Both the position numbers and the translations under genes were made by a program. From an uncultured Nitrososphaerota archaeon (GTDB taxonomy: Archaea > Thermoproteota > Nitrososphaeria > Conexivisphaerales > DTJL01), in assembly GCA_963842885.1 (NCBI GenBank), contig CAWJIE010000007.1, positions 1 to 64,000 on the forward strand: 64,000 nt of DNA. Reading direction: 5' to 3'. Of this stretch, positions 3,807 to 27,837 are shown piece by piece (position 1 is the first letter of the stretch; every line of letters starts with the position of its first letter). The notes under the pieces are model-generated. The model saw nothing but the letters and a program-made list of their open reading frames with translations, made no database searches and was not told the origin of the DNA.

Positions 3807-3846
3807 GAGGAGGTCGCAATCATGTCCAGCAGCAACAGATATCCGG
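3807..3846 (+). repeat. dispersed intergenic repeat, copy 1
   Basis: gaggaggtcgcaatcatgTCCAGCAGCAACAGAtatccgg; most similar to the IS-interrupted copy at 18978/20301. Confidence 0.75.
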
Positions 3847-3978
3847 ACACATTGGAGTCGACTTGCGGATTCGCCACCAACGCCGTTCTTCCTCGGCTCC
3901 TGCAGCTCTTCAAGATCCTGCAGACTCGTTTGTCTCTCGCAAGGCTAAAAGCATCGAATCCCGCCATGGTGGGCGTGT

Positions 3979-9142: not shown

Positions 9143-9234
9143 ACGAACCAATCCTACCCACGAAGCCCGAACAAGGAAGAAGGTCATCCGTGGGCCTGCC
9201 GCGCGGGCTCCTCGATTCCCGCCAGCGGACATGG

Positions 9235-9318
9235 CGGGCTTGTGTCAGATGGTGTCGGGCTTGTGTCAGATGGTGTCGGGCTTGTGTCAGATGGTGTCGG
9301 GCTTGTGTCAGATGGTGT
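9235..9318 (+). repeat. perfect tandem repeat, 4 x 21 bp CGGGCTTGTGTCAGATGGTGT
   Basis: Units start at 9235, 9256, 9277 and 9298. Confidence 0.95.
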
Positions 9319-9705
9319 TGGCTGGGGTGTCGCTTTCCTTACCGTCGGGTGTCGGCGGCGTTATGTTGGACAATAGCCACCAGCCATTACCACTTGAAGT
9401 GGTGATACAAGGCCTTTGGGTGTCGGCACCCTCCCCGACACCCGACACCCTGGGCCGACACCCTGCCGACACCTTTTGACACCTTAGAACCCTACATGGT
9501 CCAGCTAATAGAGGGTTGGTGGGTGTCAGTTCCCAGCCTAACGACGGACAGAAGAATTGGTCTGCTGGTGGTCTGGTGGGCCTCCAGCCGAGCCAAGAAG
9601 GGTGTCAAAAGGTGTCGGGCCAGCCTGTTGCCCAGCAGAAGGAATCACCGGCCTGTCGCCAGGCGGACGACAAATCCTCCCCTGGAGGGTGTCATATGGT
9701 GTCGC
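9235..9705. repeat. GGTGTC/GACACC motif array between convergent genes
   Basis: 16 exact hexamers counted by eye; perfect 18-bp inverted repeat at 9466-9483 / 9601-9618. Confidence 0.85.
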
Positions 9706-14789: not shown

Positions 14790-15938
14790 ATGCCCAATTC
14801 TTCAGGAGCGAGCGACCGTCTGATCAAGGTTTCTACTGTCGCAGTATCGCTTGTCTTGATTCTGGTTCTGCTGACGGCCAGGGTGGCATTGGCAGACAGC
14901 GTCATCAGCACATTGACGTTGGGCGGCAACCCCGATGGGATGGCGTTCGACTCTACTAACGGGAACATCTACGTGGCGAACTATGGTTCAAACAATGTTT
15001 CGGTCATATCGGGATCGAGCAACACTGTGATCGCTAACGTGACGGTGGGCACCGAACCCGACAGGGTCGCCTTCGACCCTGTCAACGGGGAACTCTACGT
15101 GGACTGCTACGGTTCAAACAACGTCTACGTCATAGCTGGGTCCAACAACAGCGTGGTCGCCACGATAGCGGTGGGCAACGAACCCGAAGGAAATGCATTC
15201 GACTCCGCAAATGGCTACCTCTACGTGGCGAACCACAGTGACAACAACGTCTCCGTCATAGATGGGTCGACCAATACGGTTGTCACGACAGTGGCAGTGG
15301 GCAGAGACCCGCACGGAGTCGCATTCGACTCATCCAATGGGTACATCTACGTTACAAACGACGGAGATGGCACGGTCTCCGTCATCTCCGGGTCCAACAC
15401 TGTAATTGCGACGATTGAGGTGGGCATTCTGCTCAGTCTCCCGGAGGGGATAGCTCTCGACTCGGCCAACGGGGATCTCTATGTGACCATCGGCGCCAAT
15501 AACACGGTCTCGGTTATTGCTGGGAATAACAATACCGTGCTAGGCAGGGTGGCGGTGGGCTATTACCCCCAGGTGGCCGTGTTCGACTCAGCCAACGGGA
15601 ACATCTACGTAGCCAACCTCGGAAACGCGACCTCTGCGTCTTTCGGCGAAAATGGCACGGTCTCCGTAATAGCTGGGTCGAACAACACCGTGGTGGCGAC
15701 TCTCCCGGCGGGCTACGGGCCCGCAGGAATCTCATATGACTCGACCAACGGGGACGTCTACGTGTCGAACTACGGCGATGGGACCGTCACCATAATCGCG
15801 ACTTCGGGGACACCGGTTCCAGAGTTTCCGGGGGTTGGAGTGTGGGCTGTTGTGATCGCTTCCGTGGCTGCTGCAATGTTACTTAGCAGGAGGTTTCAGG
15901 CTTCCAGCGTGAAGGCCCTAAAACCCTCGATTGATTAA
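14790..15938 (+). CDS. YVTN/YncE beta-propeller surface protein with PEF-CTERM sorting signal
   Basis: Seven P-x-G-x-AFD...YVxN...VSVI repeats; signal peptide; C-terminal VPEFP + TM + RR. Confidence 0.9.
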   Translation: MPNSSGASDRLIKVSTVAVSLVLILVLLTARVALADSVISTLTLGGNPDGMAFDSTNGNIYVANYGSNNVSVISGSSNTVIANVTVGTEPDRVAFDPVNGELYVDCYGSNNVYVIAGSNNSVVATIAVGNEPEGNAFDSANGYLYVANHSDNNVSVIDGSTNTVVTTVAVGRDPHGVAFDSSNGYIYVTNDGDGTVSVISGSNTVIATIEVGILLSLPEGIALDSANGDLYVTIGANNTVSVIAGNNNTVLGRVAVGYYPQVAVFDSANGNIYVANLGNATSASFGENGTVSVIAGSNNTVVATLPAGYGPAGISYDSTNGDVYVSNYGDGTVTIIATSGTPVPEFPGVGVWAVVIASVAAAMLLSRRFQASSVKALKPSID

Positions 15939-16212
15939 CGAAAGCTTCCTGAGCCCTTCTCCAGCTCACACGATTTGAGATCATGAATAGAGGAGGAGGT
16001 GTTCTCCTCATCACTGCGTTGTCTGCGCCCACGCCGCCGACTTCGACTGGGAGCTAGTCTGCTTGGAATGTGGGGTGTATGTCCTCCTCTACTCGTCGTG
16101 CAGGTCCCTCGAAAAGAGGAAGAAGGGACTCCCAGTTGTTAGAAAGGAGGAGAGCGAAAGGAAGTTCGGATTAGGACTCATCGACCTGAGACGTAAGAAG
16201 GGATGATCAGTC

Positions 16213-16284
16213 TTGAGGATATTGATTTCTTTTCCAGCGGCAACAGATAACCAAGAATAGAATGGGCTGCTGGAAATGATATCA
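16213..16284 (+). repeat. dispersed intergenic repeat, copy 3, followed by an inverted partial copy
   Basis: attgatttctttTCCAGCgGCAACAGAtaaccaaga; 16223-16241 is complementary to 16266-16284 at 16 of 19 positions. Confidence 0.8.
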
Positions 16285-18076: not shown

Positions 18077-18139
18077 GCCGCCATCGTCGTTCAGGTCGAT
18101 GATACTGATTCCTTCTCCAGCAGCAACAGATACCCAAGA
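18077..18139 (+). repeat. dispersed intergenic repeat, copy 4
   Basis: gccgccatcgtcgttcaggtcgatgatactgattccttcTCCAGCAGCAACAGAtacccaaga; aligns ungapped over ~60 bp with copy 7. Confidence 0.85.
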
Positions 18140-18233
18140 TTGCCATCACAAGGTCTCCTGGATAACGCCCCTTAGACCAATGGCAAATCGTCGAAATGCA
18201 GATATAAATCCGAGCCTTCTCTCACTAGTATCA

Positions 18234-18914
18234 ATGGTGAAGTATTGCATCAGTTGTGGGAAGCAGAACGAAGACCAAGCAGTCTTCTGCATAGGGTGCG
18301 GACGAAGGTTCCCGGATGAGTCAACTCCTGTTCAACAGGCGGGGAATACTGCCCCTGCTTCGCCCCCGCAGCCCACTTCACTCTTCACCATAGAGAAGGG
18401 GCCCGGAGCCCACGAGCATAGCTTCACTGATGCCTATCTCAAGGACCCCGAGGGCAAAGTGCTGTTAGTGGCGAGGAGGGAATCGCTCCTCCACGAGAAC
18501 TACGCCATAGTGGACGGAGTCGAGGTCGTCAAAGGTCTCATCGAGCATAAGGCACATCTCACCCACTCGGAACTGCGTCTTGAGGATGCTGACCACAACG
18601 TTCAGGGGTCCATCCAAGTCAGCTCCATCCGGACAGCGGGGGTTCCCCCCAATTGCTGGATAGAAGATGCCAACGGCAACAGGCAGGGTTCAGTGATGTT
18701 CACCAGCGGGCTGCTCGGCTTCTCTGTGGTCAAGCTTGATGGCTCCAGGATCTTCGACGCTTCATTCACCTCCGGACCTGGGCTGAGGCAACTCCTGACC
18801 GCGTTGGAGCACAGGGTCTATGAGATCGATCTCGTTGACTCCAGCTTTCCCTTGCCTATGCTTCTGACCGTCGTTCTAGCCATCGAGGGCGTGACTCTGA
18901 CCACTCGGAGGTAG
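18234..18914 (+). CDS. zinc-ribbon protein with possible LURP/scramblase-like beta-barrel domain
   Basis: YCISCG...FCIGCG, then beta-rich domain ending in LLTVVLAIE helix; TATA-like GATATAAAT at 18201-18209. Confidence 0.7.
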   Translation: MVKYCISCGKQNEDQAVFCIGCGRRFPDESTPVQQAGNTAPASPPQPTSLFTIEKGPGAHEHSFTDAYLKDPEGKVLLVARRESLLHENYAIVDGVEVVKGLIEHKAHLTHSELRLEDADHNVQGSIQVSSIRTAGVPPNCWIEDANGNRQGSVMFTSGLLGFSVVKLDGSRIFDASFTSGPGLRQLLTALEHRVYEIDLVDSSFPLPMLLTVVLAIEGVTLTTRR

Positions 18915-18977
18915 AGGCTTCGATACCCATCGAGTCAAGTCCAAAACCCATGATTGGCTGACAAGCTCGGTTTTTTT

Positions 18978-19003
18978 GAGGGAATCGCAAATCCTTTCCA
19001 GCA
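18978..19003 (+). repeat. dispersed repeat copy 5, left half (interrupted by IS110)
   Basis: gagggaatcgcaaatccttTCCAGCA ends exactly at the IS boundary. Confidence 0.8.
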
Positions 19004-19064
19004 CTCATGAAAGATGCCCCTTGGGCCAGCTTCCTCGAGCCTGCCTTCAGCCAGCGGTGTCCTG

Positions 19065-20108
19065 TCAGCCATCCATGGATTTGAGCTTTGTCTTGTACCT
19101 CTCCCTGTTCGTGGACTCGTACTCCTCCCTTCTCGTGAGCATGAACCAGACGATCTTCAGCATCTTGTTGGCCACGGCGACGACGGCCTTCTGGTCGCCC
19201 CTCCTCCCCTTCACCCGCTCGTAGAAGGACCTCAGCCTCGGGTCGTGCATCGATGCAGACCTCGCCGCCTCCACCATTATCCATCGGAGCATCTTCGAGC
19301 CCTGCTTCGTGATGGCTCCGTGATACTCCACGGAGCCCGATTGGTGGAGCGATGGGGCCAGCCCGGCCCACGACACCAGCTTCTTGTAGTTGGGGAACCT
19401 CTTGATGTCCCCTATCTCGGACCTTATGAGGAGGGCAGAGAAGACGTCCACCCCCGTGAGGCTCAGGAGCAGCCTCACGTCCTCGTCCTGTGACGCCCTC
19501 TCCGTGATCCTGTCGTCCACCCTGGAGATCTGTTCATTGAGGCTCTCCAGGTGATCCAGGTGGTTGTCCAGCATGAGCCGCTCCATCGGGGGGAGCTCCA
19601 GCGTCTTCAGCCACTCCACCCCTCCCTTCCCGAAGAGGTCGGAGAAGTCATGCTTCAGGCCGTTCCTGTCGACCATCGCGTGGACCCTGTTCTTCACCAT
19701 GGTGCGCACCCTCACGATCGACGCCCTGTGCCTGATGAGCTCCCTCATCTCCCTGACATCCTTGGGAGGGACGTAGCTCTCGGGTATCAGGTCCGCCCTG
19801 AGGAGGTGGGCCAGTATCCTGGCGTCCACCCTGTCGCTCTTTATCCTCGCCCATGCGATTGCCTTGGTCTTCGAAGGGGAGGCCAACACGGTCGCGACGT
19901 GCATGGAATCGAGCCTCTCGTATATGCTTAGCCAGTATGCCCCCGTCGCCTCCATCACCACCCTGTCGTCCATGGTGAGCGTCGCAGCGAGGGAGGATAT
20001 CCCTTCGCAGTCGTTTTCGAAGCCGAACTCGTCCACCACGGCCCCGTGCTCGTCCATCATTGAGACCCTGCATTTCGCCTTGCCCACGTCTATTCCCACG
20101 TATCTCAT
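19065..20108 (-). CDS. IS110 family DEDD transposase/recombinase
   Basis: MRYVGIDVGK, VMEATG, KSDRVDA and AGLAPSLHQSG (catalytic Ser loop); AGGAGA upstream. Confidence 0.95.
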   Translation of the reverse strand: MRYVGIDVGKAKCRVSMMDEHGAVVDEFGFENDCEGISSLAATLTMDDRVVMEATGAYWLSIYERLDSMHVATVLASPSKTKAIAWARIKSDRVDARILAHLLRADLIPESYVPPKDVREMRELIRHRASIVRVRTMVKNRVHAMVDRNGLKHDFSDLFGKGGVEWLKTLELPPMERLMLDNHLDHLESLNEQISRVDDRITERASQDEDVRLLLSLTGVDVFSALLIRSEIGDIKRFPNYKKLVSWAGLAPSLHQSGSVEYHGAITKQGSKMLRWIMVEAARSASMHDPRLRSFYERVKGRRGDQKAVVAVANKMLKIVWFMLTRREEYESTNRERYKTKLKSMDG

Positions 20109-20129
20109 TCCACTATTCACTCTCCTTTT

Positions 20130-20255
20130 TGCAGCTGGCATCGGGCTGCATTCACTCATGCGGGCGCCAGGCCCACTTCCTTAGCAGCTCAGGATTCGCC
20201 CAGTCAGCAACACGGTCGCCAGGACCATGCTGAAAATCGGGCTTGCCAGCCCATA
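20130..20255 (-). ncRNA. putative bridge (seek) RNA of the IS110 element
   Basis: Closing helix GCUGGCA/UGCCAGC; two stem-internal-loop-hairpin arms, both capped by CUGGC; loop strands match the target repeat and the donor junction. Confidence 0.75.
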
Positions 20256-20283
20256 CGGTATCAGGGGGCGTCTTTCATAAGGT

Positions 20284-20301
20284 CAGCAATAGATATCCAA
20301 A
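20284..20301 (+). repeat. dispersed repeat copy 5, right half
   Basis: CAGCAAtAGAtatccaaa begins at the IS boundary. Confidence 0.8.
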
Positions 20302-20390
20302 TGACTCGTACTGTGGCTCTCATTCGCAGGTCCAAGCCTACCGCAACGTTTGACACAGGATGCTTGGATTCTCTCTTGAGGTCGGTAGAG

Positions 20391-21194
20391 CTAGCCCAGG
20401 AGCGGGGACATGGACTGCAGCAGCGCGTCCTCGAACTGAATGTGGTTGTTGAAGTGGTTGTTGGGGTCCTGGATCAGCACGTACTCCCAGTAGAATTCGA
20501 AGAGGCCGAAGGTCACTATCGACAGTATGAGGTAGAGTACAAAGCTCCTGCTGGGGATCCCGTTGTACCTGTTGAAGGTGAAGTTTGTGCCGAGCGCGGA
20601 AAGCGCCCGAGAAGCGTCCGCCAGCATCCCGTCCTCCCTCCTTTCATGCCTGAAGAAGTCGCCCGTCAGGAAGTAGAGGATATAGAGGCCGGCGATCACG
20701 TCGACGAACGGCACTATCAATAGGATCACCCAGAGCACAGCGCTCTTCTCGGTCTCTTCGATCTGGGCCTGACGCGATGTCGCCTCCATCGAGCCGAGGT
20801 ATGCCTCGACGTTCGCCCCCTTCCTCGAAGCCGCTTCCCTCAGGGCCACCTGCAGGTCTGCGAAGAACCTCTGCTGCCTCGCGAAGTGCTGGTTGCGCCT
20901 CCTGATGAGGAGGTAGATCACGTAGAGGAAGGCCACGGCCAGGGCTAGGATTAAGACAGTGAACACCAACACCGTGGTGCCGGCAAAGAGGCCTGCGACG
21001 GGGGGGCTGTAGGTATTGCCGGACTGCAGGGCCGTCAACACCGGGAAGGCGACGAAGAGCACGAGGACCACTTCGGTCAGCGCTAGGAGTTCGACAGCGA
21101 TGGGAACAAGCATCCACAGAGGGGAGACCCTCGTGTCGGTCATCACCCTCATCTCAGCGTCCTTTCTGAGATTCTGCACAGTGGCGGACAACAT
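20391..21194 (-). CDS. membrane protein, DUF4234-like
   Basis: Repeated TM + (H/N)xHF units; LSIVTFGLFEFYW...DPNNHF. Confidence 0.7.
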   Translation of the reverse strand: MLSATVQNLRKDAEMRVMTDTRVSPLWMLVPIAVELLALTEVVLVLFVAFPVLTALQSGNTYSPPVAGLFAGTTVLVFTVLILALAVAFLYVIYLLIRRRNQHFARQQRFFADLQVALREAASRKGANVEAYLGSMEATSRQAQIEETEKSAVLWVILLIVPFVDVIAGLYILYFLTGDFFRHERREDGMLADASRALSALGTNFTFNRYNGIPSRSFVLYLILSIVTFGLFEFYWEYVLIQDPNNHFNNHIQFEDALLQSMSPLLG

Positions 21195-21286
21195 ATATTC
21201 TACAGCCGTATGAAAGTAATAAAGGTTCGCAAGGGGGACCGTTCAGGCAGGGACCAGCTTCCCCGTAAACCGCGCGCAGTTCTTTT

Positions 21287-21329
21287 GGTCGATGTTATTG
21301 ATTTCTTCTCCAGCAGCAACAGAACCCCA
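21287..21329 (+). repeat. dispersed intergenic repeat, copy 6
   Basis: ggtcgatgttattgatttcttcTCCAGCAGCAACAGAacccca. Confidence 0.85.
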
Positions 21330-21371
21330 GTTAGGCGACGGGCACAATAAAGGAGAATCCGAAGCTGGATG

Positions 21372-27627: not shown

Positions 27628-27689
27628 GCCGTCATCATCGGTGAGGTTGAAGGCATTGGTTCCTTTTCCAGCAGCAACAGGTATCCAAA
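27628..27689 (+). repeat. dispersed intergenic repeat, copy 7
   Basis: gccgtcatcatcggtgaggttgaaggcattggttcctttTCCAGCAGCAACAGgtatccaaa. Confidence 0.85.
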
Positions 27690-27837
27690 AACACAGTGGG
27701 ACCAGTGCAGGCGGCAGTTTCACCATCCGATTCCGAAGGTTAATGAGAACATCGATCCTATCTGCTCCTAGTCAGACAACCCGAGTAGCTGCAAAGCATC
27801 GAGGGTAGTAGGCGTAACTGACCGTGCCAGCCATCCA

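Follow-up and report, generated by a model that had tools for sequence, protein, structure and literature searches.

The 119-nt RNA encoded upstream of a recombinase gene in the 64,000-nucleotide stretch of DNA analysed here (the window) is very likely to be the bridge RNA (seekRNA) of an archaeal insertion sequence (IS) of the IS110 family with IS1111-type features. This identification comes from sequence comparison, and the original prediction of a bridge RNA with a target and a donor internal loop was upheld by covariation in the stems, by covariation between the guides and the flanks of the elements, and by relatives held out of the model. The system adds an example of RNA-guided recombination in archaea and leaves the known mechanism unchanged.

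The host was identified as an archaeon from an archaeal SRP RNA (127 bits, cut-off 96.5) and a full-length archaeal SSU rRNA. Its genome was found to contain three copies of the IS, which are 93–94% identical and have sharp shared boundaries. In an alignment of the copies and their flanks, the shared sequence runs from ...TATTGCTG|ACCTTATGAAAG to CTTTCATGAGTG|CTGGA, such that the left end of the IS starts with ACCTTATGAAAG and the right end closes with ...CTTTCATGAGTG. A TG core was found at both junctions when the filled sites were compared with uninterrupted repeats. The left end of 175 nt houses the RNA, whereas the right end is only 63 nt, and inverted repeats of 13–14 bp, ATGAAAGA(C/T)GCCC(C), lie 5 nt inward from each end of the IS. 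The features of the element are:

19002–20283, minus strand: insertion sequence, 1282 bp including one TG core at the right end (three-copy alignment)
20265–20278, minus strand: left subterminal inverted repeat ATGAAAGACGCCCC, kept in all relatives
19007–19020, minus strand: right subterminal inverted repeat GGGGCATCTTTCAT (copy alignment)
19065–20108, minus strand: intact recombinase gene, 347 aa, with DEDD_Tnp_IS110 and Transposase_20 domains and the motif GLAPSLHQSG
20133–20251, minus strand: predicted bridge RNA, 119 nt, upstream of the recombinase gene (folding, comparative alignment, 132.8 bits with covariance model R1)
20273–20280, minus strand: TATA-like TTATGAAA, overlapping the left subterminal inverted repeat

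Both domains of the recombinase were detected beyond the curated cut-offs (DEDD_Tnp_IS110, 3.3e-27; Transposase_20, 3.1e-24), and matches to IS621 (1e-13) and ISCro4 (4e-15) were found in the PDB. The recombinase domains, the element boundaries and the archaeal SRP RNA and SSU rRNA all agree with the archaeal IS110-family element that had been proposed. Using phmmer, the recombinase gave a single full-length alignment with each of IS5075 (73 bits) and ISEc11 (67 bits), and alignments in two pieces with IS621 and ISCro4 (54–59 bits). These values, which are pairwise phmmer scores and not a phylogeny, are suggestive of a recombinase nearer to the IS1111-group references than to IS621 or ISCro4. 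A GL-P----S(t)G motif is common to the window recombinase, IS5075, ISEc11, and relatives from Rhizobium and Halanaeroarchaeum.

The RNA is, from its sequence and those of its relatives, a predicted three-way junction with two hairpin arms, each of which includes an open internal loop. The stems are:

20245–20250 with 20134–20139, minus strand: closing stem P1, GCUGGC/GCCAGC, which encloses arms 1 and 2
20238–20242 with 20198–20202, minus strand: arm 1 stem P2
20223–20226 with 20214–20217, minus strand: arm 1 stem P3
20184–20188 with 20145–20149, minus strand: arm 2 stem P4
20171–20174 with 20162–20165, minus strand: arm 2 stem P5

Read on the minus strand, arm 1 is GCCCG-A-UUUUCAGCA-U-GGUC(CUGGC)GACC-G-UGUUGCUG-AC-UGGGC, and arm 2 is GCUGC-UAAGGAAGU-GGGC(CUGGC)GCCC-G-CAUGAGUGA-AU-GCAGC. 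The segments quoted in the original prediction were all located where it had placed them (UUUUCAGCA at 20236–20228, UGUUGCUG at 20212–20205, CAUGAGUGA at 20160–20152 and UAAGG at 20183–20179), and the hairpins, the outer stems GCCCG/UGGGC and GCUGC/GCAGC, the closing GCUGGC/GCCAGC and TTATGAAA at 20280–20273 are likewise in the sequence.

Folded as a single sequence, the RNA is ordinary, with a minimum free energy (MFE) of -53.8 kcal/mol (z = -1.6) that was equalled by 13 of 200 shuffles. Pairing across relatives, which lifts the structure above chance, was assessed in a structure alignment of 17 sequences, which excluded five shortened forms from genome G032, three identical copies from one MAG, and fragments. 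The 24 base pairs in the five helices were paired in 92.9% of cases over the 17 sequences, and six of them change on both sides. None of 500 shuffles matched the observed pairing and compensatory change, and slid controls paired at 20–43%. RNAalifold recovered both arms from the same 17-sequence alignment and left the loop strands unpaired. The register of P1 is ambiguous, as it is 88% paired as drawn and RNAalifold picks a different register. The RNA region 18500–21000 had no match in Rfam at E <= 1, and a scan of the whole window at the Rfam gathering scores returned tRNA only.

Pairing between the two target guides had also been raised as a caveat. Such pairing was found in the MFE fold of the window copy but not across the 17 sequences, where a conserved guide-to-guide helix was rejected: 11–13 of the 17 are unpaired at four of the five column pairs, and at the fifth, three of the seven sequences with letters there are unpaired.

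All three IS copies interrupt a dispersed repeat that reads ttGGATATC-TGTTGC-TG-CTGGAAAAGAAATCAATATC in the orientation of the element. A 40-nt motif of this repeat was matched 33 times genome-wide at <=11 mismatches and never by the reversed pattern, and T[GA]TTGCTGCTGGA was found at 17 sites and the control at none. These counts, together with the uninterrupted sites that were found, bear out the proposal that the genomic repeat is the natural target. The sites in the window are:

20284–20291, minus strand: left target half TATTGC and core TG of the disrupted repeat copy (copy alignment, empty sites)
18995–19001, minus strand: right target half CTGGAAA of the same disrupted repeat copy (copy alignment)
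18116–18128, minus strand: uninterrupted target core TGTTGCTGCTGGA, one of five in the window (repeat search)
3825–3837, 16233–16245 (one mismatch), 21309–21321 and 27667–27679: the other four uninterrupted target cores
3825–3851, 16194–16259, 18077–18142, 21270–21335 and 27628–27693: extended target-repeat stretches

As the uninterrupted repeats have a single TG between their halves, insertion occurs without duplication and the joined ends of the element would read CATGAG-TG-ACCTTA. The donor junction CATGAG-TG-A given in the original prediction thus follows from the element ends set by the three-copy alignment.

The target repeat exceeds the footprint of the guides, with many copies running on as ...ATCAATATCATCgacctgaccgacgatgacgactctcgcttaatcatctttatgttattgaaaacaataggttaattgaa to more than 100 nt overall, and the GGATATC/GATATCC within it can make a hairpin around the insertion point. 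Two roles for the repeat itself were considered and rejected. A leader of opposite-strand genes was rejected as an ORF of >=60 aa starts nearby in only 17 of the 33 copies, at scattered distances and with unrelated products, and a coding role in the orientation of the element was rejected as the frames vary among copies and meet stops within a few codons. A second dispersed motif, GT(A/G)GGCTTGGACCTGCGAA(T)GGG, is present at 20311–20340 (minus strand) in the window. It accompanies many target-repeat copies at a distance of 20–40 nt, to one side or the other, so that the two may belong to a larger composite repeat, or the motif may represent the ends or the target of a different mobile element. 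The window includes two further sets of repeats of a different kind: seven tandem repeats of ~126 nt (42 codons) within a coding region at 14914–15770 (families D1 and D2), which look like a beta-propeller-type repeat protein, and four to five tandem copies of the 21-nt unit TGTCGGGCTTGTGTCAGATGG at 9232–9336 (family D5).

The two strands of the arm 1 loop correspond to the two halves of this target:

20228–20236, minus strand: 5' side of the arm 1 loop, UUUUCAGCA, complementary to the top strand over the core and right flank, TG-CTGGAAA
20203–20212, minus strand: 3' side of the arm 1 loop, UGUUGC-UG-AC, equal to the left flank and core followed by nt 1–2 of the left end

As the 3' strand is identical to the left flank and core, it is predicted to pair with the bottom strand, and both guides overlap on the 2-nt TG core. 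The 5' guide of the window copy has one G-U wobble that arises from a C-to-U change, and the other two copies read UUUCCAGCA. On the left, the three occupied sites read TATTGC and the guide UGUUGC, giving a G-T wobble.

The guides were found to follow the flanks from lineage to lineage. When the six non-core bases of the arm 1 3' strand were compared with the left flank of each of 18 lineages, identity to the lineage's own flank was 4.67 of 6, versus 1.997 for the flanks of others (permutation p <= 1e-5). The corresponding comparison of the arm 1 5' strand with the right flank, in the 11 lineages with a recognisable right end, gave 5.36 of 7 for own flanks versus 2.59 for others (permutation p <= 1e-5). 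The folding and covariation comparison across homologues that had been proposed therefore came out in favour of the prediction, as the stems compensate and the guides co-vary with the flanks on each side. The outermost base of the 3' guide is mostly mismatched and extends the inner stem instead. Exceptions are L033, in which the 5' guide matches the right flank at 3 of 7 positions at best and at 0 of 7 in the standard register, and the short G032 forms L020, L023 and L025, which match the left flank at only 2–3 of 6. L025, the sole one of these three in which a right end was found, matches its right flank at 3 of 7.

The dinucleotide that follows the core in the arm 1 3' guide also corresponds to the start of the left end, being AC with AC in the main group and AU with AT in L034. 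By analogy with the handshake guide described for IS621 (PMC11208158, section 11), this AC is probably a handshake guide that pairs with the product junction, and it is rated probable and not shown because L035 and L023 mismatch there.

There is some chance, well short of even, that the RNA is a fossil, i.e. a former bridge RNA whose copies in this genome are now decaying relics that no longer transpose. The copies are merely 93–94% identical, the recombinase gene of copy C3:1403-2709 is split by a stop or frameshift, and the window copy has the C-to-U change in its right-target guide. Against this, full-length open recombinase frames are retained in the window copy and in copy C3:189224-190519, the stems and guides are intact in all three genomic copies (the RNA gene of C3:1403-2709 scoring 133 bits with R1 despite the broken recombinase gene), and the C-to-U change still allows a G-U wobble with the target. 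As the copies differ by 6–7% and one recombinase gene is broken, the IS may no longer be active in this genome. The question bears on present activity and not on the identity of the feature.

In the bridge RNA reading, arm 2 describes the donor. The two strands of its loop are:

20179–20183, minus strand: 5' side of the arm 2 loop, UAAGG, complementary to CCTTA at positions 2–6 of the left end
20152–20160, minus strand: 3' side of the arm 2 loop, CAUGAG-UG-A, equal to the circle junction (right end, core, first base of the left end)

The 3' side matches the donor junction at 9 of 9 positions and the 5' side does so over 5 nt, and together the two strands are predicted to describe the joined right-end/left-end junction. 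Three covarying donor states were found, namely UAAGG with CCTTA, UAAAG with CTTTA, and UAUAG with CTATA. In addition, the switch of the core from TG to AG is concerted in the DNA ends and target, in arm 1 and in arm 2, and occurs in exactly L029-L032 and L034. As the donor ends are highly conserved, the pairing of arm 2 rests on few covarying positions, and the support for the donor loop from sequence is thinner than that for the target loop.

An alternative was considered in which arm 1 alone guides, as in a target-seeking seekRNA, and arm 2 is a protein-binding scaffold in which the likeness of CAUGAGUG and UAAGG to the element ends reflects shared conservation. The arm 2 loop and the element ends are both highly conserved, leaving few positions able to covary, and the 5' side pairs over just 5 nt, the ensuing AAGU complementing neither the left end nor the core. 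Short seekRNAs described in sections 9 and 12 of PMC11187229 hold target matches only. However, the switch of the arm 2 core from UG to AG coincides exactly with that in the DNA ends and arm 1, position 3 of the arm 2 5' guide tracks the left end through three states, and arm 2 is pseudo-symmetric with arm 1 (G-N6-core-A on the 3' side), like the TBL and DBL of IS621 (PMC11208158, section 7). A scaffold role for arm 2 is thus improbable, and a donor-specifying loop is preferred.

Relatives of the element were identified in several ways. Within the host's order, a DNA search located the RNA region in 6 of 36 genomes, the window's own included. A protein-based scan of species genomes identified 13 loci, one of them bacterial and 12 archaeal; the latter are in Bathyarchaeia, Nitrososphaerales or unclassified archaeal MAGs, and 11 of the 12 include a near-full-length recombinase gene with 60–74% aa identity. 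The covariance model R1, built from the 17 aligned sequences, was then matched in 6 of 151 genomes sampled from the phylum, five besides the window's own, in elements outside the model set. These held-out elements are less closely related, and their subterminal repeats differ. Four lineages were hand-picked among the 11 new R1 hits; in these, the 3' guide equals the left flank at 19 of 24 non-core positions (manual count), the right-hand guides match the right flanks over ~5 nt, and the bases after the core are AA, with a left end that starts AA in three lineages and GA in one. In a haloarchaeal plasmid relative (45% aa identity), an RNA segment GGCCTTG-AC and a left junction GGCCTTG|AC were recognised by eye. 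With filters off, R1 found nothing in the IS5075, ISEc11 and Rhizobium loci, and gave only E = 0.28 upstream of the Halanaeroarchaeum gene.

The nearest bacterial relative examined, on a plasmid of Rhizobium beringeri (L040; 37% identity), likewise has ATGAAAG/CTTTCAT repeats, and a long non-coding region lies downstream of its gene. In that region, at 2350–2370 of the locus, a 12-nt sequence, CATTGGAGACTG, reproduces the right junction (right end, core and 4 nt of adjoining right flank), which fits a putative downstream bridge RNA with a target handshake, though in a single locus with inferred boundaries.

Shortened RNAs of 96–105 nt were found in genome G032 (L015, L018, L020, L022, L023 and L025). 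They are without the 3' half of the outer stem of arm 1 and most of the inner hairpin of arm 2, score 51–70 bits with R1, and have guides that fit their flanks poorly. Two of the G032 elements are only 1007–1146 bp. The shortened RNAs may be decayed or differently built variants. Relatives are likewise inserted in repeats of their own hosts. Copies L014, L017 and L019 of genome G030 share ACTGAGCC(A/G)TAGAGCTTTT... upstream, and four copies in one Bathyarchaeota MAG (L029-L032) interrupt ...TTGCTTTTTAG|AAGGC(A/G)..., a site whose sequence resembles gene 3' ends that would encode a C-terminal membrane anchor and then basic residues.

The closing stem begins 21–28 nt from the TATA-like TTATGAAA, a spacing that does not vary in the alignment. 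The distance suits an archaeal TATA element, from which we infer a possible promoter role. As the box belongs to the subterminal repeat, its conservation is no proof of transcription. The start codon comes straight after the RNA and no oligo-T terminator separates the two, so the RNA may be a processed leader of the recombinase mRNA. It is very improbable that it is simply an ordinary structured 5' leader of the transposase mRNA (e.g. for translational control), with flank matches due to chance or a leftover target, as, despite its position against the start codon region and its unexceptional single-sequence fold, the loops track the flanks of each lineage on both sides, in held-out elements too, and a leader has no reason to copy sequence outside the element.

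Taken as a bridge RNA, the feature would act as follows. Transcription probably begins ~21–28 nt downstream of TTATGAAA in the left end. By analogy with IS621, ISEc11 and ISEc21, the element would excise as a circle, and by analogy with characterised relatives, a recombinase tetramer (DEDD plus the SG serine) would bind the RNA. Arm 2 would pair with both strands of the circle junction while arm 1 pairs with both strands of a repeat copy, ...TGTTGC-TG-CTGGAAA.... The SG-motif serine would then exchange strands at TG, leaving the element inserted without target duplication, and the AC after the core may stabilise the exchanged strand.

The DNA of this system is sufficient to identify its target repeat, donor junction and core, together with a probable handshake dinucleotide. 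Traits that separate IS110 and IS1111 are mixed here, with an upstream RNA alongside an IS1111-like guide order, subterminal repeats and recombinase motif, a mix that is relevant to the movement of the RNA module from one element end to the other. The compact 119-nt RNA and the relatives across several archaeal lineages may be of interest in the search for small or extremophile bridge recombinases, and for the proposed link between IS110 recombinases and archaeal Nop5 (bioRxiv 10.1101/2024.06.21.599552). A broader and tentative reading is that the elements found (in the order and phylum of the host, in MAGs of Bathyarchaeia and Nitrososphaerales, and on one plasmid of a haloarchaeon) represent a mostly archaeal IS1111-type clade, in which the bridge-RNA module might have moved to the left end and been compacted to a dual-loop three-way junction of ~119 nt, with the left subterminal repeat doubling as an archaeal TATA promoter. 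If true, few natural dual-loop bridge RNAs would be smaller, and the clade would be a source of recombinases suited to archaeal (including halophilic) hosts with natural handshake pairing built in.

Bridge RNAs have been predicted for most IS110 and IS1111 entries in ISfinder (PMC11208160, section 12), and section 2.4 of a 2026 preprint reports 32,190 bridge RNAs predicted with 86 models in bacterial and archaeal genomes (bioRxiv 10.64898/2026.10.21.760802). In a further preprint, 662 archaeal IS110-family recombinases were counted and their RNAs were not analysed (bioRxiv 10.1101/2024.06.21.599552). No description of the archaeal clade or of the left-end, IS1111-polarity, 119-nt architecture was found in the literature searched, and ISfinder-wide supplementary tables may list related archaeal elements.

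The element shares several traits with IS621. Both encode the RNA in the left end, ahead (upstream) of the recombinase gene, and in both it folds into two pseudo-symmetric arms whose internal loops serve the target first and the donor second (PMC11208160 and PMC11208158). A 2-nt core is included in every guide, and the two additional bases that follow the 3'-side target guide correspond to the other DNA partner in a handshake-like manner. However, the core is CT in IS621 and TG here (AG in some relatives), and the IS621 RNA is 177 nt by its TBL/DBL numbering (PMC11208158, section 7), whereas the RNA in the window is 119 nt and has no separate 5' stem-loop. In the IS621 loops, the 5' side pairs with the bottom strand, and the arrangement inside each loop is reversed in the window element. 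The original prediction had remarked on this swapped polarity, correctly, and it is already published as the guide order of the IS1111 type: in IS1111 seekRNAs, the top-strand match is 5' of the bottom-strand match, the reverse of the IS110 type, according to Siddiquee et al. 2024 (PMC11187229, abstract and sections 9 and 12). The polarity is therefore explained by affinity with IS1111. Subterminal repeats are absent or 2–3 bp in the IS621-like IS110 group and 13–14 bp here, such that, of RNA position, polarity and repeats, only the upstream position of the RNA agrees with that group.

In its target, the element resembles the REP-targeting IS110-family members ISPpu9 and ISPpu10, whose natural target is reported to be, as here, an intergenic repeat dispersed in tens of copies; the repeat in the window differs from REP in being archaeal and about 40 to >100 nt.

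The remaining comparisons are with the IS1111 group, the marks of which include subterminal repeats, a recombinase of 330–350 aa and the GL-P----S(t)G motif (PMC11187229, section 6). The window recombinase, with 347 aa and GLAPSLHQSG, has this length and motif. The guide order, in which the top-strand-complementary guide is first, is that of ISEc11, ISKpn4, ISPa11 and IS5075. Subterminal repeats of this group are 7–17 bp (12 bp in IS5075 and 13 bp in ISEc11, as found in this analysis), and those of the window element fall within this range at 13–14 bp and begin with ATG. A repeated sequence as target and insertion without duplication are also common to both. However, the IS1111-group RNA and a long non-coding region are downstream of the gene, whereas the RNA in the window is upstream, a position for which section 6 of PMC11187229 gives ISMtsp17 as a rare exception in the tight IS1111 cluster. 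Many IS1111 members have a multi-loop donor site (Durrant et al., PMC11208160, section 12), whereas the RNA in the window has simple internal loops. Finally, the IS1111 references IS5075 and ISEc11 are bacterial loci unmatched by R1, whereas the host of the window element is an archaeon.
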